From assembly GCA_023129655.1 (NCBI GenBank), contig JAGMBN010000001.1, forward strand, positions 1 through 56,523: 56,523 nt of DNA, given 5' to 3'. A model generated the notes under the pieces. It was given only the letters and a program-made list of their open reading frames with translations, did no database searches and was not told where the DNA came from. The translations under genes and the position numbers were made by a program. Position 1 is the first letter of the stretch. Each line of letters opens with the position of its first letter. The stretch comes from a bacterium (lineage in GTDB: Bacteria; JAHJDO01). This document shows positions 19,510 through 56,523 of this stretch, piece by piece.

Positions 19510-19521
19510 ATTGTTCCCTTT

Positions 19522-34082: not shown

Positions 34083-34108
34083 TCATTAGATTTAATAATT
34101 GCTGTTAC

Positions 34109-34249: not shown

Positions 34250-34250
34250 A

Positions 34251-36215: not shown

Positions 36216-36217
36216 CA

Positions 36218-40891: not shown

Positions 40892-40895
40892 AGCT

Positions 40896-41918: not shown

Positions 41919-43075
41919 GTATCCTTATAATTGGTGGAGGTATTGCAGGAATAACTGCTGCAATATACCTTGGGGAACAAGGGCATAAAGTAACTCTAAT
42001 TGAAAGAGGAGAAATCATGGGCGGCAGGTTAAATAATCTTTTCAGCGTGTATGGTCTTGACATATCGCCAAAAGATTTCATGTGTGAGCAAGTATCAAAA
42101 TTAAAAGAGTTCTCAAATGTAGACATATTTACTTGTGCGGAATTGATAGAGACTAAAGGGCATGTAGGAAACTTCAATTCAAAATTAAAAATTAATAACT
42201 CAAAATTAAGAGAAGTTAAGCATGGGGCAGTTATTATTGCAACGGGAATTGATGTATCCGCGCCAAAGATAGATTGCAATTCTCAAAAGATAATCAATCA
42301 TACACGTCTTGAAGATTACATTGCGAACAATAAGATAAGAAGATTGTCAAAAGTCATATTCTTATGTGATTTTGACAAGGAAGATTCTCAAATAATAGCA
42401 TTATCTACTTTAAAAAATGCTTTACTTCTCAGAGAAAAATTAAGATGTGAAGTGTCTGTCTTATCCCGAAACATAAAAGTTGCCGGTAAGAATTTTGAGC
42501 AATTATATACAGCTGCCAGAGAAAAAGGAGTTGTGTTTTCTACTGTAGACGGCATAGCTGTAAAAGATCTCCTGTTGAAATGTGACTGGCTGATAATTGG
42601 GGAAAACATTCTTCCCAGCCAGGGCACAGAAGAGCTCTCGGTAATACTTGGTGTTGAGAGAGATAAACAAGGATTTTTTCAGAATAACAATGTTCACTTT
42701 ATGCCAAATTTGTCAAACAGGAAAGGCATATTCTTTGCCGGAGCATGTCATATTGATGCAGGGCTGAATGATATATTAGATGATTCGCTGACAGCTGCAT
42801 ATGCCGCTCATAACCTGGTTGCAAAGAGTGCGATAGAAATCGGTGAGAAGACAGCAGAAGTAGATGAGGAAAAATGCGCGCTTTGTCTTACGTGCCTAAG
42901 ATCATGCCCTCATAAAGCAATAGATATAGAGTTCTCTCGCGAACTGGGCAAGAAAGCTGCAAAGATTATTGAAGAGGCATGTTTTGGATGTGGAATCTGC
43001 ACATCCCTATGCTCCTCAAGCGCAATAGAGCTCAGGGAATATGAGGATGAGAAGATACTTAAGCTTATAAGGTAA
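41915..43075 (+). CDS. degenerate HdrA-like flavoprotein fused to a 2x[4Fe-4S] ferredoxin domain
   Basis: ILIIGGGIAGITAAIYLGEQGHKVTLIERGEIMGG. It lacks the CVGSRD/YCSRVCC motif. The C-terminus has CALCLTCLRSCP and CFGCGICTSLC. ATGA overlap with the upstream gene. Confidence 0.6.
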   Translation: MSILIIGGGIAGITAAIYLGEQGHKVTLIERGEIMGGRLNNLFSVYGLDISPKDFMCEQVSKLKEFSNVDIFTCAELIETKGHVGNFNSKLKINNSKLREVKHGAVIIATGIDVSAPKIDCNSQKIINHTRLEDYIANNKIRRLSKVIFLCDFDKEDSQIIALSTLKNALLLREKLRCEVSVLSRNIKVAGKNFEQLYTAAREKGVVFSTVDGIAVKDLLLKCDWLIIGENILPSQGTEELSVILGVERDKQGFFQNNNVHFMPNLSNRKGIFFAGACHIDAGLNDILDDSLTAAYAAHNLVAKSAIEIGEKTAEVDEEKCALCLTCLRSCPHKAIDIEFSRELGKKAAKIIEEACFGCGICTSLCSSSAIELREYEDEKILKLIR

Positions 43076-43241
43076 ATAAAATGACAAAAGTACGCACAAA
43101 ATGGAATCTCTGGTAACACAGTATCCAAACCACGAAAGATAGTCCTTGAGCCGGAATTAGTCATAAGAGAATCATGTGGGGCAAGAATTGGGAAGCAGAA
43201 GATTATAGATTGGATTTTAAATTAAACGCAGGATAGTAACA

Positions 43242-44072
43242 ATGAAAATCTCATTAATGACCTATAAGCATACTAAGGGGCTGTTTACTGATTTAGATGC
43301 TTTCTGTAACTTTTTAGACACCATAAAATCGTATGGCATTACAGGAGTGGAGCCTATGTTTCTGGAAGCAGAGGATTTCTATCTTAATCATGATCTGTTG
43401 CATGGCGTTTTAGAAGAAATACTGAAGAGAAACATGCACATTCCTAATATTGACCTTATTGTCAACCATTTAAAACCCGGAGGTTTTGAGGAGGCATGTG
43501 AAAAAACAAGAGCAATGATTAACTCTGCCTCTATTTTAAAACCCGATCTTGCTATGACTAATGGGAACAGGCTGCCTGAAGATATGTCCCCTGAAGAGGG
43601 AAGGAAACTTGTTGCTCTTTCTATTGATAATGCAATTGAAGCTGGGAAAAAGCACGGTTTAGACATTGCTACTGAGGCATTCGGTATCTCTTATGATGTT
43701 ATGTCAACATCGGATATGCTTGAAGACATATTCTCTATGGTAGAAAATTCACCGCTATATTTTGTAGGAGATTCCGCAAATTCATGTTATGGAGGAGAAT
43801 CTTCTGTAGTTGCGCTTGAGAAATTCTGGCATATATTAAGACATGTCCATATCAAAGATATAAAAGAAACACAAGAAGGCACCGGTTATCCTGCAAAAGG
43901 AGATAGGTGGCTAGGGCAAGCTGAACTTGGAACAGGAATCGCAGGAATAAAAGAGTTCACAAACTTTCTAAAAACTCATTCCTATAATGGCTGGTATTCC
44001 CTTGAGACCTACTGGACTGATGATTTAAGTATTCTTGGAGAGTACGCAGATACATTAAGACAACTATTGTAA
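43242..44072 (+). CDS. sugar-phosphate isomerase/epimerase (xylose-isomerase-like TIM barrel)
   Basis: 276 aa. HVHIKD and YNGWYSLE patterns are typical of this barrel family. Confidence 0.65.
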   Translation: MKISLMTYKHTKGLFTDLDAFCNFLDTIKSYGITGVEPMFLEAEDFYLNHDLLHGVLEEILKRNMHIPNIDLIVNHLKPGGFEEACEKTRAMINSASILKPDLAMTNGNRLPEDMSPEEGRKLVALSIDNAIEAGKKHGLDIATEAFGISYDVMSTSDMLEDIFSMVENSPLYFVGDSANSCYGGESSVVALEKFWHILRHVHIKDIKETQEGTGYPAKGDRWLGQAELGTGIAGIKEFTNFLKTHSYNGWYSLETYWTDDLSILGEYADTLRQLL

Positions 44073-44090
44073 CGCCAAAATTTAATAACA

Positions 44091-45083
44091 ATGGATCCTA
44101 AATCAATAGAAGAAATTTTAAGTAAAAAACTCCTATTAGAACTCAGAAGATTGTTTTACAAAACTACCGGTATGACGATATCTTTTATAATTGGCAGGAG
44201 TGGAGGAGATGTAGATTTTTTCCCTAAGTCGAAAAGAAGTCGGTTCTGCAAGATCATACATTCCACGCAGAAGGGTAAGGCGCGGTGTTCTCTCGCGGAC
44301 ACAGAATCTATTAACACTGCTTTCAAGAACCGAAAACCTCATATTCATCAGTGCCATGCGGGACTTATTGATATCTATGTGCCCATAATAATGAAAAACA
44401 AACTCATTGGGGCTCTTGCTTCGGGACAAATACTTACTAATAAACCAACAGATAAAAAATTCCTTTCAATAAAAAAGAAAACCCAGGATTTAAAAATTGA
44501 CATTAACAAACTTAAAGATGCGTATAAAAAGGTTGAAGTTATTTCACGTGAGAAACTGGATATAGTAGTAAAACTCATGTTTTTTATGGCTAATTTTATC
44601 GTAGAAAAAGAATCTTTAATAATCTTGCAAAATAAACTTATTCAACAGCAGAAGAAGATAGAGGAAGCTAATAGGGAAAGAGAGCTGTGGAAAAAAGAAT
44701 TGAGAAAAGCTATGCCTTTTATTGAAATGCAAAGTGTCTCTGCTCAGGAACATTCACACCATGAAAAGATTATCGTGGAAGCCAAAAAATTTATTGAGAA
44801 AAACTCCGCAAAACCGTTAAATCTCAAAGATGTCGCAGAAGCGGTCTATCTGAGCCCTAATTACTTCAGTAATTTATTCAAACACTACACAAACTACACC
44901 TTTCATGAATATCTAACAAAGATTCGCATTGAGAATGCTAAAAAGTTTCTCAGCAGGTTAGCTCTCAATGTATCACAGGTATCAAATCTTGTTGGATATG
45001 ATGATCCTAACCATTTCAGCAAAGTGTTCACAAAAATAACAGGCTATTCTCCACAAAAATATCGTAAGATTTTTTTGAAATAA
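44091..45083 (+). CDS. AraC-family transcriptional regulator with N-terminal PocR sensor domain
   Basis: PocR-like Cys/His pattern FCKIIHSTQKGKARC...HQCHAGLIDIYVPI. C-terminal double-HTH AraC domain ending HFSKVFTKITGYSPQKYRK. Confidence 0.8.
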   Translation: MDPKSIEEILSKKLLLELRRLFYKTTGMTISFIIGRSGGDVDFFPKSKRSRFCKIIHSTQKGKARCSLADTESINTAFKNRKPHIHQCHAGLIDIYVPIIMKNKLIGALASGQILTNKPTDKKFLSIKKKTQDLKIDINKLKDAYKKVEVISREKLDIVVKLMFFMANFIVEKESLIILQNKLIQQQKKIEEANRERELWKKELRKAMPFIEMQSVSAQEHSHHEKIIVEAKKFIEKNSAKPLNLKDVAEAVYLSPNYFSNLFKHYTNYTFHEYLTKIRIENAKKFLSRLALNVSQVSNLVGYDDPNHFSKVFTKITGYSPQKYRKIFLK

Positions 45084-45159
45084 AAATCGTAAGAATATCC
45101 AGAAAAAAGCAAGATAATCCATAGACAAATCTGTAGCTGTGTTGTTATTATACATCGTA

Positions 45160-46455
45160 ATGAATATATTGTTTATTGTTCCTGATGCTCTGAGAGCTGA
45201 TAATCTTCATTGCTATGGATATCCAAATCAAACAAGTCCTTTCATTGATAAATTGGCAAAAGAAGGAATATTATTCAAAAACACAATAAGCACTTCATCA
45301 CATACCATGCCGGGTATTGTTTCTATGTTTACCGGGCTTGGTTCAATTACTCACGGTGTAAACGGTCCCAAAGAATATGAAGAGTGGAATAATGGCAAAC
45401 TATGGAGAGCATGGCAGACACCGTTTAATATTCTGAAAGAAAATGGTTATAAAATAGCCGGCTGTGACCAATGGATGTATAGCCAGTTAGGTTATGATAC
45501 AGAGATAAAGGACTTGAGTAATGCAATTGAAGAGTATAAAAATGAGAAATTTTTTATGTGGTGGGCGCCTTATCACACTCACCTTCCATATAATCCGGGA
45601 GATCCTTATGATGAAATGTTTATACCGGAAGGATATAAAATTAGTGAATCTACAAGAAAAAGATTGGAAGTTATAAAGACAAAAATGATTCTGCACAAAC
45701 CTGGTCTTTTAAGTCAATTTGAGGAGGACTTGGCAAAAGGAATTACAAGACGCTCAACTCACCCGATAACTGTGGCTACATTAACGGTAGAGAAAGAGGA
45801 TAAACCTGCAATTATGGCTTTATACGACGGAGAAGTAAGAACGCAGGATGAAGAGATAGAGAATTATATAAAAAAACTGGATGAATTGCATTTACTGGAT
45901 GAGACGATAATTGTAATAACTTCAGGTCATGGAGAAGAAATAGGTGAGAGAGGTTCAATAGGGCATGCATCTTGTTCGCTTGCAGGCACTTTGTATGATG
46001 AAAGCGTAAAAGTTCCGCTAATAATAAGATATCCTAAAGCGCTTCCAAAAGGGAAAGTCATTGATACTCAGGTTTCATTGATTGATATCATGCCGACAAT
46101 GTTTGAAATTATTGGGCTTGACATACCAAAAGAAACCGAAGGGCAGTCGCTTATGCCGCTTATAAGAGAAAAAACAGATTTTAGAGAAGAAGCATATTCA
46201 GAAACACGGCCGTGCGGATTTCAGCTTCGTGAGGGTGATGAAAGAAAGATATACGCTATAAGGACACCTGATTGGAAATTCATATATAATTATGATCCTA
46301 ATAACAAAGATAATTGCAAATATGAATTATACGATTTAAAGAACGATTCAGGAGAAAAGCGCAACTTGTTTAATAAAAAGACTGACATAGCAAATCAGTT
46401 TAAAGAAAAACTTGATAAATGGATTAAAAAGCCGTCGTTTCTTTTAAATAGATAA
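45160..46455 (+). CDS. alkaline-phosphatase-superfamily hydrolase, paralog of 13669-14961
   Basis: About two-thirds of residues are identical to the 13669 protein by eye. Same T-x-P-x-I nucleophile region (SHTMPGIVSMFTG), but TSGHGEE replaces TSDHGEE. Confidence 0.75.
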   Translation: MNILFIVPDALRADNLHCYGYPNQTSPFIDKLAKEGILFKNTISTSSHTMPGIVSMFTGLGSITHGVNGPKEYEEWNNGKLWRAWQTPFNILKENGYKIAGCDQWMYSQLGYDTEIKDLSNAIEEYKNEKFFMWWAPYHTHLPYNPGDPYDEMFIPEGYKISESTRKRLEVIKTKMILHKPGLLSQFEEDLAKGITRRSTHPITVATLTVEKEDKPAIMALYDGEVRTQDEEIENYIKKLDELHLLDETIIVITSGHGEEIGERGSIGHASCSLAGTLYDESVKVPLIIRYPKALPKGKVIDTQVSLIDIMPTMFEIIGLDIPKETEGQSLMPLIREKTDFREEAYSETRPCGFQLREGDERKIYAIRTPDWKFIYNYDPNNKDNCKYELYDLKNDSGEKRNLFNKKTDIANQFKEKLDKWIKKPSFLLNR

Positions 46456-46477
46456 TAGAACTTAGGAGCATGTGCCG

Positions 46478-47506
46478 ATGAAGTTGAAGATAGGTATAGC
46501 AGGTTTAATGCGTGGAAAGGTTTACGTGGATTGTTTTAGAAAAGCAGGCATAGAAATCAATGCGTTTTGCGACGCTAATGAACAAGTTTTGCGTCAGGCT
46601 GGGAAGGAATACAATGTTTCTAATCTATACAGCGATTACAATGAATTTCTCAATTCAGATATAGATGCAGTAGTGGTTGCAACTCCCTTGTCTCTGCATA
46701 CGGAACATTCTATTGCTGCTTTAAAGGCGGATAAGCATGTATTAAGTGAAGTTCCTCCTGTAAATTCTATAGAAGAAGCAAAAGAGTTAAAAAGAGCTGT
46801 TAAAGAAACAAAAGCCAAGTATATGCTGGCGCAGAACACCTGTTATTGGGCGCATATACAGGCATGGAGAAGGATGATCAAGGATGGAAAAATAGGGAAG
46901 ATCATATACGCAGAAACTGAATTTATTATGGAAAGCGTAATTGATCCCCGGCAAAAGCCAACATGGCGAGCGACTATGCCTCCGATCTGTTACTGCACAC
47001 ATAGTCTTGGTCCATTGCTTTCTATGATAGATGATAGATGCGTTAGCGCACAGGGATTTAAAACAGAAGCAACTGTTTGTAAGACAAAGCCTGATGCGGA
47101 ATTGGGAATTTTTAGAACTGAAAAGGGTGCTATAATAAAACTTCTTGTTGGATTTGGATTAAAAAGAAAACCTAGAGTATATTACTGGTCAATCTATGGG
47201 ACAAAAGGCTGTCTTGAAACACACCGGGATTTTAATAATGAAACAACACTGGCGTATTTTGATGATATTCCACATCTCAAAAATATGATTAATATTCCTC
47301 TTTCTCCTGACCACGTAAAAATGAACATTCCCGGCATGCATGGTGGGACAGAACATCTTTTAGTTAAGGATTTTGTGGAAAGCATCTTAGAGGATAAACC
47401 TGCACCCATTGGTATAAATGAGGCGTTAAGCTACGGATTGCCTGGCATCTGCGCTCATCAATCTGCAATGAATAATGGAGAAGAAGTAGAAATACCTGTT
47501 TTTTAA
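46478..47506 (+). CDS. Gfo/Idh/MocA-family NAD(P)-dependent oxidoreductase
   Basis: N-terminal Rossmann LKIGIAGLMRG, DAVVVATPLSLHTEHSIAALKADKHVLSEVP, and a C-terminal alpha/beta dimerisation-type domain. Confidence 0.8.
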   Translation: MKLKIGIAGLMRGKVYVDCFRKAGIEINAFCDANEQVLRQAGKEYNVSNLYSDYNEFLNSDIDAVVVATPLSLHTEHSIAALKADKHVLSEVPPVNSIEEAKELKRAVKETKAKYMLAQNTCYWAHIQAWRRMIKDGKIGKIIYAETEFIMESVIDPRQKPTWRATMPPICYCTHSLGPLLSMIDDRCVSAQGFKTEATVCKTKPDAELGIFRTEKGAIIKLLVGFGLKRKPRVYYWSIYGTKGCLETHRDFNNETTLAYFDDIPHLKNMINIPLSPDHVKMNIPGMHGGTEHLLVKDFVESILEDKPAPIGINEALSYGLPGICAHQSAMNNGEEVEIPVF

Positions 47507-47525
47507 AACAAAGGAGATAAAAACT

Positions 47526-48698
47526 ATGGCAAAACAAGGATTGGGAATGTCGGTAAGAACTTATGGTGAACGAGAGCAAAAACTTCTTCAACAGGTTCTT
47601 GCTTCGGGAAAGCTTTCATCCCTGGCAGGAGGGAAATTTGTTCCTGAATTAGAAAAAAAATTCGCCGAAGCAATTGGAACTAAATATGCAGTTGCAATGA
47701 ATTGTTGTATGAGCGCTCTTCATATCGCTTTGTTGAGCGCTGAAGTTGGAGCTGGAGATGAAGTGATTACTGATTCGGAATTTGTTTTTGGAGCTCAAGC
47801 AGTGCTCTATTGTAATGCAATTCCTGTTTTTGTGGATATCAATCCAGTTACTCATAACATGAACCCGAACAACATAGAAAAGGCGATAACTAAACGAACA
47901 AAGGCTATTATTGCTACTCATGCATGGGGATTGCCTGCTGAGATTGACAGGATTGTTGAAATTGGGCACAAACATAATCTTTTAGTTATTGAAGATTGCG
48001 CAGAATCAATTTTAGCTCCTTATAAAGGCCGAAATACAGGCAACTGGGGGGATATCGGGTGTTTTAGTTTTCAGTCAAGCAAACAATTATCAACAGGAGA
48101 CGGTGGGATGGCTACAACTAATGACGAAAAACTCGCTAAAATGCTTAGACAAGATTCCGGAGCTCCCACATCCGGCTCAATTGCTTATAATCTGCGTTAT
48201 GGTTACCGTATGACTGAAACAACAGCAGCTGTTGGATTAGCTCAGCTTGAACGTTTGCCTGATTTTATTGAAGGCCTTAAAATCAATGCTGAATATTTTG
48301 ATGAAGCGGTAGCTGAGTGTAAATGGATAGAACTCCAGCGCGGACCGGATGAGGCCGAGCATAGTTTTTATAAATGGGCTGCAACTTTTAAGGGAGAAGA
48401 ATACGGAATTGATCGTGAAGATTTTAAGAATGCCATTGAAAAAGCTGATTTCTCTTCGGTTTCCGTCGGCTATACTCATATGCCGAATTATAAGCATTCT
48501 TTGATCAAAGAGCACCTTGCTTATTCATTTCATTGTCCGAACAATAAAGAAAGCGATATTAGTTATCCTGAAGGTCTCTGTCCGAACGCAGAACATGTCA
48601 TTCCAAGACTTCTTATAGTTCGTATCATACAATCTGAGGAAACGGCAAAAAGAGAAGCTGAAAAATTGAATAAGGTTATAATGGAATTGGAGAAATAA
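47526..48698 (+). CDS. DegT/DnrJ/EryC1/StrS-family PLP-dependent aminotransferase
   Basis: 390 aa. CFSFQSSKQLSTGDGGMATT contains the PLP lysine context of the family. Confidence 0.85.
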   Translation: MAKQGLGMSVRTYGEREQKLLQQVLASGKLSSLAGGKFVPELEKKFAEAIGTKYAVAMNCCMSALHIALLSAEVGAGDEVITDSEFVFGAQAVLYCNAIPVFVDINPVTHNMNPNNIEKAITKRTKAIIATHAWGLPAEIDRIVEIGHKHNLLVIEDCAESILAPYKGRNTGNWGDIGCFSFQSSKQLSTGDGGMATTNDEKLAKMLRQDSGAPTSGSIAYNLRYGYRMTETTAAVGLAQLERLPDFIEGLKINAEYFDEAVAECKWIELQRGPDEAEHSFYKWAATFKGEEYGIDREDFKNAIEKADFSSVSVGYTHMPNYKHSLIKEHLAYSFHCPNNKESDISYPEGLCPNAEHVIPRLLIVRIIQSEETAKREAEKLNKVIMELEK

Positions 48699-48699
48699 A

Positions 48700-49425
48700 T
48701 TGATAATTGATGCTCACTGTCAGATTGGCAAAGGGCGGTTTTATGATGTGTCCAGTAAGGATTTGATAAAAGAGATGCGTATATGCAGAATAGAAAAAGC
48801 TTTTATATGTCCTGGGGAGACAGAAATTGCCTCAGATTGTAACAGTGCCAATGAAAAAATGGCGAATATTAAGAAAGATTTTCCTGACAAATCTAGAGCA
48901 TGGGCAGTAGCTAATCCGTGGACAGGTAAGAATGCAGTAAAAACTTTAAAGACTGCCAAGCAGCTTGGGCTGGACGGATTAAAACTTCATCCAAAAGTTC
49001 AAGGATATAATCTGAGTGATAGAATGCTTTATCCTTTAATAGAGTTTGCGCTGGATGTAAATTGGCCGATATATGCAGATACAGGCACTCCAATATGCTC
49101 AGAGCCAATGCAGCTTGTTGAACTTGCAGAGAAATTTCCAAAAGCAAAGTTTATAATGGGACATATTGCTTTTGCGGATTTCTGGTATGATGTTGTTGAA
49201 GCTATGAAACGTTCGGATAATATCTGGGCGGAAACCTCTCATCATGGTTCTGGCATGTTAAAGGCAGTTGTTTCTGAAATTAGTTCTGATAAACTGATCT
49301 TCGGGTCTGATTTTCCCATAGGAAATATAGAAGTAGAGTTGGGAAAGGTGAAAAACTTAGATTTATTTGATAAAGATTTAGAAAAAGTTCTCTTCCATAA
49401 TATAGAAGGATTAATGGATAAATGA
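48700..49425 (+). CDS. amidohydrolase-2 (PF04909-like) metal-dependent hydrolase
   Basis: TTG start. MIIDAHCQIG, GLKLHP and FGSDFP motifs. Confidence 0.65.
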   Translation: MIIDAHCQIGKGRFYDVSSKDLIKEMRICRIEKAFICPGETEIASDCNSANEKMANIKKDFPDKSRAWAVANPWTGKNAVKTLKTAKQLGLDGLKLHPKVQGYNLSDRMLYPLIEFALDVNWPIYADTGTPICSEPMQLVELAEKFPKAKFIMGHIAFADFWYDVVEAMKRSDNIWAETSHHGSGMLKAVVSEISSDKLIFGSDFPIGNIEVELGKVKNLDLFDKDLEKVLFHNIEGLMDK

Positions 49426-50198
49426 GGATAATTGACGCTCATTCTCATGTTATGTTCGGCTCATGGATGGGTTCAATACCTGACCCTGAAGGCAAAAAAC
49501 TTATCAAAGAGCTTGAAACATGCAATATAAGTTCAGCCGTCATTTCAGCTATTGACAGTCTTATTACCACAGACTTCAAGCTGCAGCAAAAGATAAACGA
49601 AAAGGTGTCTGCCTTGCAAAATAAATATGATAAAATTCTTTACGGACTTGGAACAGTTACTCCAAACGCCGGCAAAAAAGTAGCTATGGAGATTAAAAGA
49701 TGCAAGGAAAAACTTGGGCTTTATGGTCTAAAATTACATACATGGCTTCAGGCATTTTCAGTTATGGCAAAGGATTGTGATTACATATTTAAGACTGCTT
49801 CTGAATTAGGCATGCCTATTCTTTTCCACGACGGCACACCGCCATACTCAACACCTTTACAAATAGCGCATATAGCGCATAAGTATCCCAATCTTAAGAT
49901 CATATTAGGACATGGCGGACTCAAAGATATGTGGATAGATGCTCTTGAAGCAGCAAAAAAGAATAAGAATATTTATATTGCAACTTGTGGTACGCCATAT
50001 CTCGGGATAAAAACTATGATAAAAGAACTCGGCATTGAAAGAATTATGTTTGGTTCAGATTCTGGATTTGCGGATGCATCACAGACTATTTACCAGTTAA
50101 ACAATGTGAAAAAGCAGAACCTTAAAAAAGCCGAATTAGAATTAGCTCTCTATAAGAACGCTAACAGGATATTTTCCTTAAACCAAAACTTGGAATAA
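49422..50198 (+). CDS. second amidohydrolase-2 (PF04909-like) hydrolase
   Basis: MRIIDAHSHV, GLKLHT, ILGHGG and FGSDSG. ATGA overlap with the preceding paralog. Confidence 0.65.
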   Translation: MRIIDAHSHVMFGSWMGSIPDPEGKKLIKELETCNISSAVISAIDSLITTDFKLQQKINEKVSALQNKYDKILYGLGTVTPNAGKKVAMEIKRCKEKLGLYGLKLHTWLQAFSVMAKDCDYIFKTASELGMPILFHDGTPPYSTPLQIAHIAHKYPNLKIILGHGGLKDMWIDALEAAKKNKNIYIATCGTPYLGIKTMIKELGIERIMFGSDSGFADASQTIYQLNNVKKQNLKKAELELALYKNANRIFSLNQNLE

Positions 50199-50214
50199 CG
50201 AGAAGTAAATAATT

Positions 50215-51975
50215 GTGATAAACTTACATGAATGCAGTGGAAATTTTTCAATTTTAGCTGTAGTAGATACTAGCAAGGATGAATTTAGATATGTTGAACA
50301 GGGGTTCTTTCTTGCTTTTGAACATTTAGGGATTCCTTACAGAATAATAGATTTATCAAAAGAAAAATTAACTCCTGAAGAAATAGCTAATTCCCGAGCT
50401 ATTGTTATTGCTCAGGAAGGTATAGGAGAAAATTTTTCTTCGGCTGATGGAGACAGCATTAAAAAGTCCATAGAAGAGTCTGGTATAGGGTTGATTAATT
50501 TTGATCATCGCATAAATTCTTATCCTTCTGACCTTCGTAATATACTTATTGGAACAGATAAGAATATTAAATTCTATACATCAAAAGGACTGCAAATAAA
50601 AAACAACACTCATTTTATTACTGAAACATATGAAGAAAATCAAAAGGCAGAATTTTTGCAGGATATTGAAATGTCAATTCTGCCATCGTCTTTTGAGAAA
50701 GATAATCTTATTAGCTCATTAGAAAATTATCCTGTTCTGAGATTGTCGCGTCTTGGTAAAGGAAGAGTTATCCAATTTCTTATTTCTTCCAGGATGTGGC
50801 ATTCTGAATATTTTGGACACCTGAGTGGTTTTGACGCACTTTTTTATAAGTCGATTATCTGGGTTGCAAAAAAACCATTTCTTATGATGGCAATGCCTCC
50901 GTTTGTTACAGCAAGAATAGACGATTGTTCAGGGTCTGGAAGCCATTACATAACAAACAAAGAAAGTACAGTGATAAATTTCAGATACATTGATACATTA
51001 AATAAATATGGTTATATTCCTAATATCGGTTTGTTTCTTGATGACATCACAGACAGTGACGGAAAAATCATAAAGGAAAAATACGATAAGAAACTTGCTG
51101 AATTCTCTCCGCATGCATTTGGAGAAAGTGAGGACAGAAAGATTAAACGGCTTATTTATATGAAACATAACGGAGAGGAATATACTAAGAAAGAACTTAT
51201 AAGAAATTTTGAGAAAGTAGACAGGAAATTTTCTTCATGGGGAATAAAACCATCAAGAGCGCTTAACGCTCACTATGGTGAAACAGGAGTGAACTCTATC
51301 CCATTCTTAAAAGAAAGAAATCAGAATTTTGTAATGTCTCTTTCCGTGTCGTTTGGCAGCTGCTGGAGTAATTCTCCTTCTCATGATTGGAAACCCTATG
51401 AAATAAGAAGAAAAGACGGGAAATATGCTTTTATTGCTGATTATATGCCAGATTATCCTGAATTCTTTAATCTATCAAATGTGTTTCCTTGCGAAAATCG
51501 CATTGATTTTCTTCTTAAAAACACAAAATTCGAGGGAGAAAATAAAAAGAATGATATAGAAGAAACAATAAAAAAAGGAGTTGAGATAATAACACTGAGC
51601 CTGGATAGTTTATTCTTTGGATGTCTCCTGACACATGAACAGAGGATATCTGCTATGAGTCTCTGGGAATGGGAACAAGTTTTGAATGGTATAGATAAAT
51701 TAACTTCAAAATATAAAAAGATATTTAAAGGATATGACTATATTGCTGAATACGCAAAGAGCAGATATGATACAAAAATAACAGAGGCAAATTGTAACTC
51801 CACAATAGACCAGATAACATTAAAACTAAAGGGTAAATCCAGTTTGCCGCTAAAAGTTTATGTTTATGCTGATGAAAGCTGTCAACACAAATTTAAAGAA
51901 ATACCAGTATTTGAGGGAAAACTCACCCTGACCCTCTCTTTGAAAGAGAGGAAACAAAAAGACGAAAGGAAATAG
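50215..51975 (+). CDS. 586-aa protein of unassigned family (ThuA/GATase1-like N-terminal pattern plus unknown C-terminal domain), AT-rich copy
   Basis: Long ORF with a GTG start. It shares blocks with the next gene: HLGIPY, G(I/V)GL(I/V)xFD, H(F/Y)ITxT, GxGR, KSI(I/V)WxAxKPF, AMPPFxTAxxDDCSGS, FRYxDTxNKYG and THEQR. Confidence 0.8.
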   Translation: MINLHECSGNFSILAVVDTSKDEFRYVEQGFFLAFEHLGIPYRIIDLSKEKLTPEEIANSRAIVIAQEGIGENFSSADGDSIKKSIEESGIGLINFDHRINSYPSDLRNILIGTDKNIKFYTSKGLQIKNNTHFITETYEENQKAEFLQDIEMSILPSSFEKDNLISSLENYPVLRLSRLGKGRVIQFLISSRMWHSEYFGHLSGFDALFYKSIIWVAKKPFLMMAMPPFVTARIDDCSGSGSHYITNKESTVINFRYIDTLNKYGYIPNIGLFLDDITDSDGKIIKEKYDKKLAEFSPHAFGESEDRKIKRLIYMKHNGEEYTKKELIRNFEKVDRKFSSWGIKPSRALNAHYGETGVNSIPFLKERNQNFVMSLSVSFGSCWSNSPSHDWKPYEIRRKDGKYAFIADYMPDYPEFFNLSNVFPCENRIDFLLKNTKFEGENKKNDIEETIKKGVEIITLSLDSLFFGCLLTHEQRISAMSLWEWEQVLNGIDKLTSKYKKIFKGYDYIAEYAKSRYDTKITEANCNSTIDQITLKLKGKSSLPLKVYVYADESCQHKFKEIPVFEGKLTLTLSLKERKQKDERK

Positions 51976-51977
51976 AG

Positions 51978-53729
51978 ATGAATAACATCGTACAAGATCA
52001 ACAGTCAGAAGGTAATGGTACGGTATTGTTGTTAGCAGACAGTTCTGATGACAAGGCGTATAGTTATGTTGAAGAGACAATGCTTGCAGCACTCGGACAT
52101 CTGGGTATCCCATATAAAATCAGGGACATAGAGACAGACATTCTATCAAGAAAAGAGTTGCTTGAGCATAGTTGTGTGATTCTGGGACAAAATTGTCTTG
52201 GGAAAAAGCTCGGGCAGAAGGGTGCCGAAATTTTAAGAGATGCGGTTGGAGCTGGAGTAGGGCTTGTCAGTTTTGATGGCGATCTTGGAAGTTACAGTAA
52301 GGCATTTTTTGAGATTTTTAGGATAAATATCGGAAGAACTCCTCTTCTTTGTTCAGACATTAAAACAGTAAATGTTGAGCATTATATAACAGGTACGCGT
52401 GAGCTGGATGATGATGTTACTCTTTATAAACCCTTGGAAGTGTGGCCGATTGAAAGTCCACACTGCGGTTCTGTTGGTAAAAGTTTACTGCAGACCTCCA
52501 ACAATTGGCCGGTTCTGATTGCAAGCACCCATGGTCAGGGACGAGCAGTGCTTTTTACCGGTTCCGTCAAGTTATGGATAAGAGATATTTTAGGTCATGC
52601 ATCAGGACTGGATGATGTATTCTGGAAATCAATCGTGTGGGCAGCTCGCAAGCCCTTTGCAATCTATGCAATGCCGCCCTTTGCCACTGCCCTTGTGGAT
52701 GACTGCAGTGGTTCTTACAATCACTTTCGTTATGTAGATACAATGAATAAATACGGGTGGCTCCCGCACGTGTCGATTTTTCTGGAGAACATTGACAGGG
52801 TAATACACCAAGCTGATTATGCAGACTCTGCGAAGATGAAGGCGCTGTACGATGCCGGGCTGGCGGAGTTTAGCGTGCATGGTTTTACGTACGAAAACCT
52901 GGCGGTTTTCAATCACAGGGCAAGAAAACCACTTTCAGATGAACAAATCGTGGGGAATTTCAAGCGAATAGATGCCTATTTTAAAAAATGGGGAATTACC
53001 CCCAGCCGCTGGCAGAATTACCACTTTTGCGAGATGGGAACGAATGCATTTCCCTATATGAAGGAGCGAGGCGTTGAGTATTTGCACATGGAACTGAATC
53101 CGGATACAGCATGGTTGGATGTTCCAGATAACAAACCTGCTTTCAGACCACCTAAGCCATATCATCACCGGGGATTTTACATGGATTATCTGGAGCAGGA
53201 CACTGATTTCTTTATTTTCCATTCCATGCTGAATCCATGGGGGTTTGACTCGCCCGACTTTGTGCAAGAGACCGATTTTCTGTGGAACCATACGATTTTT
53301 TGGGACGAAAGTCCCTGTAATAATGTAGAGGATGCAGCTCGTATAGGAATAAAGCAGATCCGACGGGGGATTGATGCCAGATTTTTTGGGTATATCCTGT
53401 GTCACGAGCAACGGGTGGCGGTGGTATCCATGAAAGAATGGGACAAAATATTAGGCAGTATCCACGATGGGCTGAAGAAGTATGATTTAATCTATCGGGC
53501 GCCTGAATATATCCTTGATTATGCTCGCAGTCATTACGACACACGGATTGCGGATGTGTCAGTAAATAATGAGAGCGGCAAGGTACACTGCAAAATGCAG
53601 GGAAAAACTCGTTTAACAACAGCATTAGAGGTATATATAAATAATGAAAACAGTGTGCAGTGTGAATTATGCGATATTCCGCAATTCACAGGGACAGTGA
53701 ATGTGAAAATGCAATGTCCATTACCATAG
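51978..53729 (+). CDS. 583-aa homolog of the preceding gene, GC-rich copy
   Basis: ATG after AAGGAAATAGAG. It shows the same conserved blocks as 50215-51975 but a visibly different base composition. Confidence 0.8.
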   Translation: MNNIVQDQQSEGNGTVLLLADSSDDKAYSYVEETMLAALGHLGIPYKIRDIETDILSRKELLEHSCVILGQNCLGKKLGQKGAEILRDAVGAGVGLVSFDGDLGSYSKAFFEIFRINIGRTPLLCSDIKTVNVEHYITGTRELDDDVTLYKPLEVWPIESPHCGSVGKSLLQTSNNWPVLIASTHGQGRAVLFTGSVKLWIRDILGHASGLDDVFWKSIVWAARKPFAIYAMPPFATALVDDCSGSYNHFRYVDTMNKYGWLPHVSIFLENIDRVIHQADYADSAKMKALYDAGLAEFSVHGFTYENLAVFNHRARKPLSDEQIVGNFKRIDAYFKKWGITPSRWQNYHFCEMGTNAFPYMKERGVEYLHMELNPDTAWLDVPDNKPAFRPPKPYHHRGFYMDYLEQDTDFFIFHSMLNPWGFDSPDFVQETDFLWNHTIFWDESPCNNVEDAARIGIKQIRRGIDARFFGYILCHEQRVAVVSMKEWDKILGSIHDGLKKYDLIYRAPEYILDYARSHYDTRIADVSVNNESGKVHCKMQGKTRLTTALEVYINNENSVQCELCDIPQFTGTVNVKMQCPLP

Positions 53730-54484
53730 GCTTTTGGGATTTGGTTTTAGTAGTAGTAGTTTCTTTACAGGCAACGATACTGGCATATTTTTATCAGCCT
53801 AAATGGAAGGCTTTTATGCTGACATTGCCTATTCCATTTACAGTTGCGTGCATGGCAGTGGGACGTCCCATTGATGCGACCAATGTTTTGGGGCTGATTT
53901 TACTTCTGGGTTTTACACATGGGGTCAGGTTGTTGCATTATAAATTCCACTTGCAAATTATTCCGGCTATTGCGCTGGCTGTCTTGAGCTATTGTCTGTT
54001 GGGCTGGATTATTGTCGGTATTTTGCCGGAGGATAAAATTATTTTCTGGGTATCCAGTATCTGTGCACTTATTATTGCAGTGGTTTTGCTTAAGATGTTA
54101 CCTCATCGCGCCGAACAGGGACATCGTAGTTCTTTACCTGTATGGATTAAGCTTCCCATCATCGTTGGCGTGGTGCTTTTTTTGGTAGCAATCAAGAAAA
54201 ATTTGCATGGTTTTATGACTGTTTTTCCCATGGTAGGGGTTATTGCAGCTTATGAAGCGAGGAATAGTTTATGGACAATCAGTCGCCAGATTCCTGTGGT
54301 AATGCTTACAATGATACCAATGATGATGGTTTGTCAACTTACTCAAAACAGTGTTGGTTTGGGATTTTCTCTTGTCCTGGGCTGGGTTGTTTTTATACTG
54401 ATGTTAATTCCCATAACGAAGTTCATGTGGTCTGCTGAAACAGCAGCGGCAGATAAATCAGAAAAGGCTATAAATGTTGAATAA
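53714..54484 (+). CDS. polytopic inner-membrane protein (about 7-8 TM helices), unassigned
   Basis: Almost entirely hydrophobic helices (LVLVVVVSLQATILAYF, IPAIALAVLSYCLLGWIIVGIL and others). Start uncertain (ATG 53714 or 53669). Confidence 0.7.
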   Translation: MSITIGFWDLVLVVVVSLQATILAYFYQPKWKAFMLTLPIPFTVACMAVGRPIDATNVLGLILLLGFTHGVRLLHYKFHLQIIPAIALAVLSYCLLGWIIVGILPEDKIIFWVSSICALIIAVVLLKMLPHRAEQGHRSSLPVWIKLPIIVGVVLFLVAIKKNLHGFMTVFPMVGVIAAYEARNSLWTISRQIPVVMLTMIPMMMVCQLTQNSVGLGFSLVLGWVVFILMLIPITKFMWSAETAAADKSEKAINVE

Positions 54485-54497
54485 TTAGGAGATAGAT

Positions 54498-55829
54498 ATG
54501 TCAAAATCAGCACACGAAGCTACCGGAAGCAAACCAACAAGTTCCAAGCCGGATGACGGCGTTACACTAAGAGTTCCCTACTCTTATTTTGGCGCAATGT
54601 ATGATAAAGAAGAGGAAAAAGCAGTTCTTGTGGCAATGAAGCAGGACAGGCAGACCAAAGGACCTCATCTGGAACAATTCCAAAAGGAGTTTGCAGGTAT
54701 GTGCGAAGTAAAACATGCTCTTGCAGCTTCTAACTGCACTACTGCAATGCACGCGGCAACCCAGGCATTTGGCATCAAACAAGGGGATGAAGTCATTATT
54801 ACACCAAACACATTTATTGCTACTTCTCTTGTGCTTTTAAAAGAGGGAGCTAGACCTGTCTATTCAGACATTGATCCAAAAACGTATAATATTGATCCAA
54901 AACAGATAGAAGAGAAGATAACGCCCAAAACAAAAGCAATTTATGTTGTTCACTACGGTGGGCAGATGTGTGATATGGATCCTATAATGGAAATTGCAAA
55001 AAAACATAATCTGTACGTTCTGGAAGACTGCGCGCATACACCTGGAGCAGAATACAAAGGAAGGAAAGCGGGAAGTATCGGAGATATGGGGTGCTTCAGC
55101 TTTCATTCATTGAAGAACATGACAACACTAGGCGAAGGAGGCATGGTTACAACCAATAATGACGAGATAGCGGCAAAAGTAGCAAGGCTTCGCGCAATGA
55201 ATACAGCGGCATGGGACTTCCCTGAAAAACAAAATACATTCAATTTCGCAGGATATACATTAACAAAAACAGGTATATCCGATTACTGGATTCCGTCTCA
55301 TCATGATGTGATAGATGATGATGGGAAATGGGGAAACAATTATAGAATGAATGAAACTCAGGCTGCAGTTGGTATATGCCAGCTAAAAAAGTTAAAATGG
55401 ATGAATGAAAAACGGAGGGAATTCGGACGCTATATCAATGAAGCAATAAAAGATATTGAAGGCATAACCCCAGTATATGAAGACCCAAACTGTTACCATG
55501 TTTATCATCTTTACACTCTTTGTGTTGAAGAAGAAATGGGTATAGAAAGAGATGCTTTTATGCGGATTCTTTATAGAGAGCATGGCATTCAGCCCATACT
55601 TCATTATCAGCCCACATATCACTATACCGGGTTAAAAAAGCTGGGTTATCCTGACAAGCTCTGTCCAGTTGCAGAAAAATTCTTTTACAAAAGAGAACTA
55701 AATCTTCCCATACATCCAAGATTAACTAAGGAAGACTGTAACATAATGATTGAAGGAATTAAGAAAGCTGCAGAAAAGGTGAGAAAGCAAATAGAGAATT
55801 TAGATGAGCATGGGCTCTTTTCTTCTTAA
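54498..55829 (+). CDS. second DegT/DnrJ/EryC1/StrS-family aminotransferase
   Basis: 443 aa. CFSFHSLKNMTTLGEGGMVTT contains the PLP lysine context. It has a longer N-terminus than the first copy. Confidence 0.85.
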   Translation: MSKSAHEATGSKPTSSKPDDGVTLRVPYSYFGAMYDKEEEKAVLVAMKQDRQTKGPHLEQFQKEFAGMCEVKHALAASNCTTAMHAATQAFGIKQGDEVIITPNTFIATSLVLLKEGARPVYSDIDPKTYNIDPKQIEEKITPKTKAIYVVHYGGQMCDMDPIMEIAKKHNLYVLEDCAHTPGAEYKGRKAGSIGDMGCFSFHSLKNMTTLGEGGMVTTNNDEIAAKVARLRAMNTAAWDFPEKQNTFNFAGYTLTKTGISDYWIPSHHDVIDDDGKWGNNYRMNETQAAVGICQLKKLKWMNEKRREFGRYINEAIKDIEGITPVYEDPNCYHVYHLYTLCVEEEMGIERDAFMRILYREHGIQPILHYQPTYHYTGLKKLGYPDKLCPVAEKFFYKRELNLPIHPRLTKEDCNIMIEGIKKAAEKVRKQIENLDEHGLFSS

Positions 55830-55932
55830 ACTTTTACTGCTCCCACCCGTTTTTGCTGATACATAGTTTTTCCCATTGAAATCGTCAACCAGCTTTTTTG
55901 CATTTTCGAATTGCAATTTAATAGAAAAAACA

Positions 55933-55960
55933 TTGACAAGCTAATATATAAATGTATTAT
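55933..55960 (+). promoter_or_regulatory. sigma70-type promoter of the vapBC-like pair
   Basis: TTGACA (55933-55938), 16-nt spacer, TATTAT (55955-55960). RBS AAAGGAGG lies at 55987-55994 before ATG 56002. Confidence 0.55.
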
Positions 55961-56001
55961 ATAAGTATACATTTTTTAAAAAGCTAAAAGGAGGTTGAAA
56001 C

Positions 56002-56247
56002 ATGGAAGCATCTATTATTGATCTTAGATATAAAATGAAAGATATTCTCAAGGCTCTTAACCGTAAAGAGAATGTAAAAATTCTCTATCACGGCAAAGAA
56101 AAAGGGATAATAATTCCCTTGAAAGAAAGAAGTAAAAAGAAGGTAATGGACTATCATTTCTATGGTATGTACAAAAAAGATAACTATGAGCAGACTGTTG
56201 CACAGCAGATACATTCTCTGCGTGGAGGCAGATACAATGATATTTGA
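56002..56247 (+). CDS. type II antitoxin (partner of the PIN toxin)
   Basis: 81 aa, strong RBS, and its 3' end overlaps the PIN-toxin ATG by 11 nt. The N-terminal region is Phd/YefM-like by eye. Confidence 0.55.
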   Translation: MEASIIDLRYKMKDILKALNRKENVKILYHGKEKGIIIPLKERSKKKVMDYHFYGMYKKDNYEQTVAQQIHSLRGGRYNDI

Positions 56248-56523
56248 TACTGATATTTTGATTTGGGTCCAGCGTGGCAATCAAGAAGCTGCCAGACTTA
56301 TTGATAAGACAGAAGACAGGATTATATCCGTGCAAACTTTTATGGAGCTTATGCAATGTCCATCTTCAAAAAAACAACATCAATATGTCAAAGATTTTCT
56401 TGCAGGAAATGATTTTCGCGTGCTTCCACTGACTGAGAATATCGGGCACAGAGCAGCTGTATATATTGAAGAGTATTCTTTAGCCACGGGTTTATTGGCA
56501 GGGGATGCCATTATTGCCGCAAC
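56237..56523 (+). CDS. PIN-domain toxin (VapC family), truncated by the window edge
   Basis: Not in the ORF track because it lacks a stop. It translates MIFDTDILIWVQRGNQEAARLIDK...QTFMELMQC...LLAGDAIIAA, with the acidic residues spaced as in VapC (DTD, E, D..IAA). Confidence 0.8.
   Translation, partial: MIFDTDILIWVQRGNQEAARLIDKTEDRIISVQTFMELMQCPSSKKQHQYVKDFLAGNDFRVLPLTENIGHRAAVYIEEYSLATGLLAGDAIIAA

Follow-up and report, generated by a model that had tools for sequence, protein, structure and literature searches.

Which compound is handled by a compact operon that combines two DegT/DnrJ/EryC1-family aminotransferases (DegT1 and DegT2), a Gfo/Idh/MocA oxidoreductase (Gfo), two PF04909 amidohydrolases and two large proteins without a Pfam assignment, and does the operon make that compound or break it down? 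The question is raised by positions 43242-55829 of a 56,523-nucleotide (nt) stretch of bacterial DNA (assembly GCA_023129655.1, contig JAGMBN010000001.1; GTDB lineage Bacteria; JAHJDO01), the whole of which is hereafter called the window. A preliminary description had left the catabolic or biosynthetic direction open; gene context now favours the catabolic one. In our reading, which we offer tentatively, as possible and a little short of probable, the block is inducible, works entirely in the cytoplasm and serves the catabolism or salvage of one or more N-acetylated amino sugars, in the form of monosaccharides or of short oligosaccharides. The block appears to be a sugar-processing operon built partly from undescribed families, with DegT enzymes in an unusual setting; single parts of it recall known systems, and it belongs to none of them. 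The earlier remark that no known pathway of this composition could be named stands: every block enzyme scored far below the model cutoff of the NCBIfam equivalogs, and searches of the literature on CE18/Agd3, ThuA with aminotransferases, aminoglycoside degradation, 3-keto-glycoside lyases, Pse/Leg catabolism and creatininase with enolase and DHDPS turned up no pathway with this gene content that has been characterised. Scores below the NCBIfam cutoffs led us to reject the labels iolG/iolE, PseC/LegC, levoglucosan dehydrogenase, UDP-GlcNAc 3-dehydrogenase, BT_2158/2159, arylsulfatase and PocR.

The two adjacent proteins of 583 and 586 amino acids (aa), hereafter the ~585-aa proteins, had been called unassigned (Table 1). 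In Pfam this remains true, since the 583-aa protein has no match and the 586-aa protein none above threshold (a weak GIFT/class-I-GATase-like match). The ~585-aa pair, however, can be assigned through its fold. When an AlphaFold2 (AF2) model of the 583-aa protein (predicted local distance difference test score, pLDDT, 94.7) was compared with the PDB by Foldseek, as the preliminary description had proposed, the best match was Agd3 (6nwz; E 1e-12, TMq 0.58, whole length, 10% identity), and PelA was also found (9cgy; E 5e-9); these two are the sole full-length structural relatives in the PDB. Taken by domain, the N-terminal part matched the ThuA-like protein 1t0b and the C-terminal part the putative polysaccharide deacetylase 3rxz. 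Neither phmmer nor hmmsearch with a 51-sequence profile found anything but noise at E ≤ 10 among the PDB sequences, 6nwz and 9cgy included; only the comparison of folds was informative.

The family CE18 was founded on the de-N-acetylase Agd3, whose ThuA-like domain is the carbohydrate-binding module CBM87 and whose catalytic motifs are a DD base/metal pair, an HxxxH motif and a late His acid (PMC7229062). In an alignment of 51 homologues of the 583-aa protein (A1), D241, D242, H301, H349, H476 and E477 (583-aa numbering) were invariant, and the 586-aa paralogue, 33% identical to its neighbour, keeps all of these columns. In the AF2 model the invariant residues lie at or beside the C-terminal ends of predicted β-strands 235-243, 297-302 and 471-476, a placement like that in a NodB barrel. 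D241/D242, at the end of strand 235-243, correspond to the Asp-Asp motif CM1, and H476 corresponds to CM4. The CM2 motif HxxxH is missing, since GFTY follows H301 and leaves position +4 without His, and H349 is 48 residues away; H301 and H349 are the candidate metal histidines. The proteins also carry a PY motif resembling CE4 motif 3, and faint Polysacc_deac_1 and ThuA matches were seen in 8 and 6 of the 51 family members, respectively. Together, model and alignment point to predicted metal-dependent de-N-acetylases whose substrates would be N-acetylated amino sugars or oligosaccharides. They probably form a separate cytoplasmic family with a CE4/CE18-like mechanism, yet outside CE18.

The likeness to Agd3 of Aspergillus fumigatus and the deacetylase domain of Pseudomonas PelA thus extends from end to end, with a ThuA-like (CBM87-type) domain in front of a NodB-type (β/α)7 barrel, and includes the DD pair and late His of Agd3, but not CM2 and not any detectable sequence relationship. 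Agd3 and PelA act on secreted polymers, whereas the 583-aa and 586-aa proteins are assigned to the cytoplasm because no signal peptide is visible in their translations, and that of the 583-aa protein shows no hydrophobic stretch at its N-terminus; nor is the gene context an exopolysaccharide synthase cluster but a DegT/Gfo/amidohydrolase operon. The family is small (740 clusters at 50% identity among 1.84 billion representatives). The 583-aa protein has orthologues of 70-75% identity in Planctomycetales-type metagenome-assembled genomes (MAGs); the 586-aa protein has no close orthologue elsewhere (≤37% identity at related loci). Many family members are modules, often N-terminal, of proteins of 1000-5165 aa (P0288, P0297-P0301, P0314, P0361 and others), which are presumably secreted or surface-bound, unlike the stand-alone cytoplasmic form in the window. 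A 575-aa protein of locus L194 was rejected as a member (hhalign probability 2.5%).

Do the remaining genes of the block belong with these proteins? Conservation was followed from two independent starting points, the ~585-aa protein and the 'b'-type PF04909 protein. An unbiased clustering of all open reading frames (ORFs) at 86 loci with ~585-aa homologues ranked DegT first among the neighbours (18 loci) and Gfo second (15). The core, consisting of ~585-aa deacetylases, DegT, Gfo/Idh/MocA and the PF04909 pair, was found in Planctomycetota, Kiritimatiellia, Phycisphaerae, Spirochaetes and Anaerolineae, usually accompanied by a creatininase-type amidase, an AAC(3)-like acetyltransferase, ROK or LacI regulators and sugar importers. 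In the close clade, defined as ~585-aa homologues of at least 40% identity, Gfo, one to three DegT copies, a creatininase-type amidase and one to three ~585-aa proteins recur. Starting from the 'b' protein, we found the order Gfo-DegT-DegT-creatininase-AH2a-AH2b (AH2, amidohydrolase-2) in Planctomycetota and similar gene subsets in Kiritimatiellia, Phycisphaerae, Spirochaetaceae and Eubacteriales. Because the core was recovered reciprocally from both proteins in other phyla, the association goes beyond chance. The neighbourhood check that had been proposed thus bore out these core families only: the sulfatase-like gene, the TIM-barrel gene and the membrane gene were found at none of the related loci examined.

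The closest locus holds ROK, Gfo, AP_endonuc_2, three DegT, creatininase, two PF04909 pairs, Antibiotic_NAT and cyclase genes. In a Planctomycetales MAG we found ROK, Gfo, two DegT, Polysacc_deac_1, M20, creatininase, two ~585-aa proteins, the PF04909 pair and Antibiotic_NAT; in Anaerolineales, a LacI-type regulator, Gfo, two DegT, Antibiotic_NAT, two AP_endonuc_2, three ~585-aa proteins, PIG-L, cyclase and an ATP-binding cassette (ABC) importer; and in Phycisphaerae, ROK, two Gfo, creatininase, M20, Antibiotic_NAT and two ~585-aa proteins, with GH116, GH36 and ceramidase genes near. The PF04909 a/b pair is present in Planctomycetales-type loci and not in L004, L006 and L010, and Antibiotic_NAT is present in L091, L009, L004 and L006. 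L194 (Planctomycetota) encodes an Antibiotic_NAT::AP_endonuc_2 fusion of 504 aa at 8785-10299, with the TIM barrel C-terminal. The Antibiotic_NAT proteins of ~494-499 aa at L009 13240-14724 and L091 16909-18408 may share this architecture, the tables giving Antibiotic_NAT only; the window has a stand-alone TIM barrel and no acetyltransferase. More distant ~585-aa members adjoin FGGY kinase, isomerase and DeoC aldolase genes in Bathyarchaeia.

Several features of these loci bear on direction. Amide hydrolases belong to the conserved core, with the NodB fold here and joined elsewhere by creatininase, M20, CE4 or PIG-L enzymes. Regulators across the loci are of catabolic type (ROK, LacI, PocR-AraC), importers near homologous loci are SBP_bac_1 ABC or major facilitator superfamily (MFS) systems, and glycoside-hydrolase-like neighbours include GH116, GH36, GHL6/GHL10, DUF4838, heparinase II/III and BNR sialidase-like genes. 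No glycosyltransferase was found at any close-clade locus, and no nucleotidyltransferase, sugar-nucleotide dehydratase, cyclitol synthase, flippase or exporter in the block or at those loci. Catabolism is favoured because catabolic-type regulators, importers and glycoside-hydrolase-like genes are found together without glycosyltransferases. Since no glycosyltransferase, nucleotidyltransferase or flippase is encoded at 43242-55829 itself, the earlier judgement that this is not a classical surface-polysaccharide locus is upheld.

The dehydrogenase and the aminotransferases indicate what chemistry might follow deacetylation. Gfo (PF01408, E 6e-20) reached 73.9 bits against a cutoff of 355 for iolG, 73 against 650 for levoglucosan dehydrogenase and 72 against 450 for UDP-GlcNAc 3-dehydrogenase, and its best PDB matches (GH109, levoglucosan dehydrogenase and DgpA) cover the Rossmann part only. 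DegT1 (PF01041, E 5e-78) scored 204 bits against a cutoff of 420 for the LegC family TIGR04181, carries the Schiff-base Lys context FSFQSSK and has homologues of only 28-35% identity at related loci. For DegT2, with the Lys context FSFHSLK, the best NCBIfam model was PseC TIGR03588 (300 bits, cutoff 423.5) and the best PDB match 7b0d, annotated 'glutamine--scyllo-inositol transaminase' (E 3e-67), with NtdA in mid-rank (E 2e-40). The sub-threshold LegC and PseC best matches are compatible with 2,4-diamino-trideoxyhexose-type substrates and prove nothing. DegT2 homologues of 50-69% identity adjoin ~585-aa-family genes in Anaerolineales (L006/L016) and, with a ROK gene between, in an Oscillospiraceae MAG (L084); in Kiritimatiellia (L177) a homologue adjoins a PF04909 gene. 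Positions 84-4573 of L084, from the Hadza gut, form a minimal module: a DegT gene (69% identity to DegT2), ROK and a ~585-aa-family homologue of 526 aa. So high a DegT identity between phyla points to horizontal transfer and to a direct tie in function between DegT and the ~585-aa family.

In NtdC/NtdA, WbpB/WbpE and GenD2/GenS2, biosynthesis is established to proceed by oxidation and then DegT transamination. The main rival to catabolism shares this Gfo/DegT logic and runs it forwards: Gfo would oxidise a sugar or cyclitol hydroxyl, DegT would aminate the ketone (twice for a diamino product), and deacetylases and hydrolases would tailor a small amino sugar, an aminocyclitol or an envelope component assembled by genes elsewhere. 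We consider this unlikely. The Gfo-DegT adjacency is common to the block and to the kanosamine (NtdC/NtdA), WbpB/WbpE and GenD2/GenS2 gene pairs; NtdA and 2-deoxy-scyllo-inosose aminotransferases are among the DegT matches in the PDB, Antibiotic_NAT acetyltransferases occur at related loci, and Agd3 and PelA themselves work in exopolysaccharide maturation. Against this, neither the block nor the close-clade loci encode an enzyme for activation, transfer or export; PocR-AraC, ROK and LacI are regulators of the catabolic activator/repressor type, sugar importers and glycoside-hydrolase-like genes are adjacent, and the window has deacetylases and no acetyltransferase. The PseC, LegC, iolG and Wbp-type equivalogs are all far below cutoff. 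The HAD phosphatase NtdB, WbpA/D/I and enzymes for nucleoside diphosphate (NDP) sugars are missing compared with the Ntd and Wbp systems, as are an NDP-sugar 4,6-dehydratase, an N-acetyltransferase, a nonulosonic acid (NulO) synthase and a CMP-transferase compared with the PseC/LegC pathways. Compared with such amino-sugar biosynthesis pairs, the deacetylases of the block and the catabolic-type regulators and importers suggest the reverse direction.

The preliminary description had proposed oxidation and transamination of a sugar or cyclitol. The recurrent Gfo and DegT pairing fits this logic for a sugar, but the NodB-fold deacetylases favour N-acetylated amino sugars over a cyclitol. A cyclitol version would be catabolism or detoxification of aminoglycoside-like pseudo-oligosaccharides or of aminocyclitols of the scyllo-inosamine/rhizopine type, with DegT removing amines, Gfo and the IolE-like TIM barrel acting on the ring, and amidases or acetyltransferases acting on N-substituents. 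Gfo, DegT, PIG-L, amidase, AAC(3)-like and AP_endonuc_2 families serve aminoglycoside tailoring and the moc and iol genes, and related loci hold Gfo, DegT, PIG-L, creatininase-type amidase, AAC(3)-like Antibiotic_NAT and AP_endonuc_2. The PDB matches annotated as 'glutamine--scyllo-inositol transaminase' and 2-deoxy-scyllo-inosose aminotransferases and the faint iolG and iolE matches point the same way. Those matches, however, stay at 74 bits against 355 (iolG) and 22 against 290 (iolE), and no IolB/C/D/A, MocB/D/E/R or cyclitol-phosphate enzyme is encoded in the block. The CBM-like domain and NodB fold of the ~585-aa proteins indicate N-acetylated glycans, and the window itself lacks Antibiotic_NAT, PIG-L and creatininase genes. 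An aminoglycoside-like or aminocyclitol substrate is accordingly rated highly improbable.

The PF04909 pair had been described as lactonase-type hydrolases, a label that did not survive comparison. Both genes matched PF04909 ('a' E 2e-23; 'b' E 8e-25), and an alignment of eight PF04909 sequences from three loci (A2) separates an 'a' type, in which the HxH motif is gone, from a 'b' type with the full metal-binding set. The 'a' motif reads DAHCQ in the window and DSAVR in Planctomycetales-type loci, the latter also lacking the terminal Asp. Because 'a' lies immediately upstream of 'b' at every locus in A2 and overlaps it by ATGA in the window, the pair is suggested to form a heteromer with one degenerate subunit; adjacent AH2 gene pairs occur at many further loci. 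The nearest solved relatives of 'b' are the uncharacterised amidohydrolase 3nur (E 1e-11) and the γ-resorcylate and 5-carboxyvanillate decarboxylases (E ~3e-11), followed by the uncharacterised 3cjp and 3irs and LigJ hydratase; for the pair as a whole they include γ-resorcylate decarboxylase, LigW, ACMSD and LigJ hydratase. No lactonase was among the PDB matches at E ≤ 0.01. The label was rejected on sequence and stays only as a possibility from context, namely that of actinobacterial relatives of 'b', in which MR_MLE was found at 33, DHDPS at 24 and Gfo at 22 of 80 loci; the window lacks this dehydratase and aldolase context. A proven sugar lactonase belongs to PF04909/cog3618, according to a passage of PMC6946681 that cites Hobbs 2013. 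Kribbella and Micromonospora loci combine IclR, Gfo, creatininase, PF04909, an enolase-superfamily dehydratase, a DHDPS-type aldolase and an ABC importer. The IclR, Gfo, dehydratase and DHDPS pattern is that of oxidative non-phosphorylative sugar-acid catabolism, here with an amidase added. At L174 (Bathyarchaeota B26-2), an intein-interrupted FeoB gene (4644-7115) lies upstream of a PF04909 a/b pair.

If the block serves the breakdown of N-acetylated amino sugars, its enzymes could act as follows. The substrate would be imported, possibly by the membrane protein, and the two ~585-aa proteins would strip N-acetyl groups by metal-assisted, CE4/CE18-like hydrolysis. The two DegT enzymes would run in the deaminating direction, with a 2-oxo acid as acceptor of the released amino groups and a keto sugar or keto acid as the other product. 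Gfo would supply a coupled NAD(P) step, either reduction of the ring ketone to a hydroxyl or a prior C1 oxidation that makes the amine the α-amino group of an aldonic acid. The PF04909 heteromer could hydrolyse, hydrate or decarboxylate the product, the TIM-barrel protein could isomerise or eliminate, and the PocR-AraC regulator would induce the operon when the substrate or an intermediate is present. Two orders are both chemically plausible: (a) a ring-keto route with reduction or elimination afterwards, and (b) C1 oxidation and lactone opening to a 2-amino-aldonate, an α-amino acid and as such a natural aminotransferase substrate. With deacetylases and aminotransferases both present in duplicate, the substrate may be a di-N-acetylated diamino sugar, or there may be two substrates that are epimers. 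The OngB/OngC route for GlcNAc1A, which is related to order (b), is a precedent for deacetylation and then deamination of an amino sugar acid without phosphorylation (PMC12017989), although OngB is D-aminoacylase-like and the deacetylases of the window have the NodB fold.

A number of points weigh against this scheme, the whole of which we infer beyond the fold and family assignments. To our knowledge, DegT enzymes have been characterised almost only in biosynthesis, mostly on nucleotide-linked sugars. Antibiotic_NAT at related loci would fit a biosynthetic logic of oxidation, transamination and acetylation equally well, and distant ~585-aa homologues (24-27% identity) sit beside GT2, GNAT and DegT genes in Chloroflexi and beside Wzz in Latescibacterota, which also speaks for biosynthesis. 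The window has no copy of the creatininase gene common at related loci and no obvious downstream kinase or aldolase genes, so no route into central metabolism is visible. Without the CE18 HxxxH motif, the metal site of the ~585-aa proteins, and hence their deacetylase activity, is predicted only. Finally, identities between loci are often only 23-40%, because of which 'same pathway' holds at the level of families and not of orthologues.

A bolder proposal extends salvage of amino sugars to a multi-phylum catabolic route: DegT enzymes would run in reverse on free, non-nucleotide amino sugars after de-N-acetylation by a new cytoplasmic CBM87-like and NodB family, for example on rare envelope sugars of bacteria or archaea such as di-N-acetylated diamino sugars, together with a PF04909 heteromer containing a pseudo-subunit and, here, a membrane protein that serves the route and whose fold has no solved relative. 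In this full form it is doubtful. If breakdown of N-acetylated amino sugars is the function, a gap in the carbon and nitrogen cycle would be filled: Planctomycetota, Kiritimatiellia, Anaerolineae and other lineages of anaerobic sediment and groundwater would recycle these sugars from necromass and exopolysaccharides by de-N-acetylation, pyridoxal phosphate (PLP) transamination and NAD(P) redox steps, a chemistry unlike the textbook NagA/NagB route. Such a function would also give a first lead to the role of three families without annotation (the ~585-aa Agd3-like proteins, the PF04909 a/b pair and the membrane protein), and would yield deacetylases and aminotransferases for non-activated amino sugars, of use in editing glycans and in making amino sugars. 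Should the reading be wrong, the gene association is nonetheless reproducible across phyla and is left blank by current annotation.

Two other known systems resemble the block in part. Oxidative routes of the L-fucose type (dehydrogenase, lactonase, dehydratase and aldolase) are resembled by the actinobacterial loci of the 'b' relatives, whereas the window has no dehydratase, aldolase or 2-keto-3-deoxygluconate (KDG) kinase and has DegT in place of a deaminase or dehydratase. The 3-keto-glycoside pathways of Bacteroides (BT2156-BT2160; PMC8121099) and rhizobia (ThuAB) share a Gfo-type dehydrogenase, an IolE-like TIM barrel and a ThuA-like domain with the block, and the best relatives of the window Gfo oxidise C3 of pyranosides. 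However, the window encodes neither a DUF1080 hydrolase nor Tat or signal peptides, its BT_2158_fam and BT_2159_fam scores are 43 bits against 750 and 37.4 against 650, and its aminotransferases and deacetylases are without counterpart there.

Is the block then one functional unit? The ORF scan placed eleven + strand genes in one run (Table 1), separated in 5'-to-3' order by 18, 76, 16, 19, 1, -4 (ATGA), 16, 2, -16 and 13 nt, with larger flanks of 166 nt upstream and 172 nt downstream. The preliminary description had reported ten tightly packed same-strand genes at 45160-55829, with the TIM-barrel and PocR-AraC genes before them; the scan and the gaps agree with this packing, all gaps in that interval being ≤19 nt or overlaps, and the junctions quoted there (48698/48700, ATGA at 49422-49425, 51975/51978 and the overlap at 53714-53729) are correct. 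Its family assignments (TIM barrel, PocR-AraC, Gfo/Idh/MocA, two DegT, two PF04909) were confirmed by Pfam and a precomputed table; the Pfam assignment of DegT2 was taken from that table, and the other Pfam E-values were computed directly. For three genes the start may differ: the longest ORF of the 45160-46455 gene begins at 45139, a gene caller puts the start of the 46472-47506 gene 6 nt later, and the 53714-54484 gene has an alternative start at 53669.

Table 1 Genes of the block at 43242-55829 of the window
Feature	Position	Strand	Assignment
Xylose-isomerase-like TIM-barrel protein, 276 aa	43242..44072	+	PF01261
PocR sensor domain + AraC-type helix-turn-helix (HTH) regulator, 330 aa	44091..45083	+	PF10114, HTH_AraC
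Sulfatase-fold protein, Thr at nucleophile position, 431 aa	45160..46455	+	PF00884, SGSH_C
Gfo/Idh/MocA NAD(P) oxidoreductase, 342-344 aa	46472..47506	+	PF01408
DegT/DnrJ/EryC1-family PLP aminotransferase 1, 390 aa	47526..48698	+	PF01041
PF04909 amidohydrolase-2 'a' type, 241 aa, degenerate metal motif	48700..49425	+	PF04909
PF04909 amidohydrolase-2 'b' type, 258 aa, canonical HxH...H...H...D	49422..50198	+	PF04909
ThuA/CBM87-like + NodB-fold protein, divergent paralogue, 586 aa, predicted de-N-acetylase	50215..51975	+	
ThuA/CBM87-like + NodB-fold protein, 583 aa, predicted cytoplasmic de-N-acetylase	51978..53729	+	AF2 + Foldseek
Polytopic membrane protein, 256 aa (271 aa from 53669), candidate transporter	53714..54484	+	no Pfam
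DegT/DnrJ/EryC1-family PLP aminotransferase 2, 443 aa	54498..55829	+	PF01041

Neither promoter-like sites (47, compared with 43.7 ± 6.6 after shuffling) nor terminator-like sites (11, compared with 8.0 ± 3.1) exceeded the shuffled level; no terminator-like site lies in any + strand intergenic gap of the block, and Rfam gave zero matches in 42000-56523. An extended -10 promoter-like site lies at 45122-45151, inside the 76-nt gap, and belongs to a class of sites at background level. The best promoter-like match of the region (sigma-70-like, 11/12) is at 55933-55960, just downstream, and is consistent with the end of the block at 55829. A single transcript over 45160-55829 is suggested by the spacing, and by the spacing only, because the promoter and terminator counts are at shuffle level. 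The GC content at third codon positions (GC3) is 0.43 in the 583-aa gene and 0.40 in the membrane gene, compared with 0.27-0.34 in the surrounding operon genes, the 586-aa gene being lowest at 0.27. This shift suggests that 51978-54484 is a recently acquired cassette. The block as a whole was probably assembled by horizontal transfer, because of the GC3 shift and because the best relatives of single genes come from different phyla.

The same observations could be taken to mean that the block is a mosaic of at least two unrelated functions on one strand, for example a unit of the TIM-barrel, PocR-AraC and sulfatase-like genes and an inserted cassette of the 583-aa, membrane and DegT2 genes. The GC3 jump would fit, as would the differing phyla of the best relatives (Planctomycetales-type MAGs at 70-75% for the 583-aa protein, an Oscillospiraceae MAG at 69% for DegT2), the 76-nt gap with its promoter-like site ahead of 45160, and the lack of the sulfatase-like, TIM-barrel and membrane genes at related loci. 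Nevertheless, other phyla repeatedly show the core families together, whichever of the two starting proteins is used, the genes from 45160 to 55829 are tightly spaced without a terminator-like site, and an origin by horizontal transfer is compatible with a single function. We regard a mosaic as very unlikely.

The TIM-barrel protein (PF01261, E 1e-16) scored 21.8 bits against a cutoff of 290 for iolE, and its sole PDB sequence match was Art22 (E 8e-4); it is a candidate isomerase, epimerase or eliminase encoded by a lineage-specific accessory gene. Other AP_endonuc_2 proteins occur at related loci, some fused to Antibiotic_NAT, but an orthologue of the window protein was not found there. The regulator matched PF10114 (E 9e-34), HTH_AraC (E 9e-23) and HTH_18 (E 5e-22), with 145 bits against 500 for the PocR equivalog. 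PocR-AraC genes recur only around distant ~585-aa homologues in Sphaerochaeta, where L018 and L020 carry one of 34% identity directly after the ~585-aa homologue. In these two loci (~2277-16171), BNR sialidase-like and DHDPS-type lyase genes are followed by the ~585-aa homologue and then by PocR-AraC and Gfo, with an ABC importer upstream; judged by gene content, the locus looks like nonulosonic-acid-type catabolism. The loci also hold URO-D-like, Ldh_2 and class I/II aminotransferase genes. A sialic-acid-type link for the family was not adopted, since the sialidase-like and lyase genes occur in these two Sphaerochaeta loci only, and is retained as a hint.

The protein encoded at 45160-46455 matched PF00884 (E 1e-42) and SGSH_C (E 9e-25), and the earlier call of a Thr-type enzyme of the alkaline-phosphatase fold proved right. 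Aligned to the sulfatase BT4656 and compared with a paralogue, its HTMPGI sequence has Thr at the formylglycine Cys/Ser position of C-x-P-x-R and Ile in place of the Arg. This paralogue, encoded at 13669-14961 (+) and 69% identical, reads TSDHGEE where the operon copy reads TSGHGEE, so that the (S/T)DHG metal-ligand motif is lost in the latter. The protein is probably not a sulfatase and is possibly catalytically impaired; the gene appears to be a lineage-specific add-on, and its translation, with no visible signal peptide, would place the product in the cytoplasm. The paralogue also has H-T-x-P instead of C-x-P-x-R and follows a YjeF-type NAD(P)HX repair gene (12072-13643).

The membrane protein, which belongs to a strongly conserved family, has no Pfam match. 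Among its 531 homologues, the best 120 (49-67% identity) are all unnamed and without Pfam domains, and come from Armatimonadota, Verrucomicrobia, Planctomycetota and Anaerolineae. Its AF2 model is all-helical (pLDDT 95.5), but the Foldseek comparison that succeeded for the 583-aa protein found nothing in the PDB at E ≤ 0.001 (best E 0.35, TM 0.19). At the homologue loci, L172 and L173, one copy is flanked by FGGY kinase and PF04909 genes, with genes for an SSF transporter and an AraA-like isomerase adjoining, and another follows split transketolase genes. The protein is a candidate transporter, its link to sugar metabolism coming from gene context alone. In L172 (Planctomycetota), an FG-GAP protein is encoded upstream of the homologue.

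Contigs identical to the window belong to the MAG GCA_030629405.1 and to an ENA metagenome. In a taxonomic comparison by PurH, the best match was a Latescibacterota MAG (63%), with mixed phyla behind it. Elsewhere in the window, a separate sugar-type cluster on the - strand (15542-21555) encodes an acetoacetate-decarboxylase-like protein, AP_endonuc_2, a transaldolase/FSA-like protein, a second AP_endonuc_2 and a 677-aa FG-GAP repeat protein. Directly after the block, and behind the promoter-like site at 55933-55960, an 81-aa ORF (56002-56247, +) is followed by a PIN-domain gene, likely a toxin-antitoxin pair (L001 14025-14637). ATP-citrate-lyase-like subunits are encoded at 29712-32980 according to Pfam, and a 386-aa protein with Pyr_redox_2 and Fer4 domains at 41915-43075. 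Aconitase-like and isocitrate-dehydrogenase-like genes at 34251-37429, and an FAD/ferredoxin-type protein, are suggested by reading of the translations and not confirmed by search. The genes of 29712-37429 and 40755-43075 suggest an anaerobe with genes of the reductive tricarboxylic acid cycle or Wood-Ljungdahl type, and in the longer contig (L001) FlpD, FolD and MTHFR lie downstream of the block.

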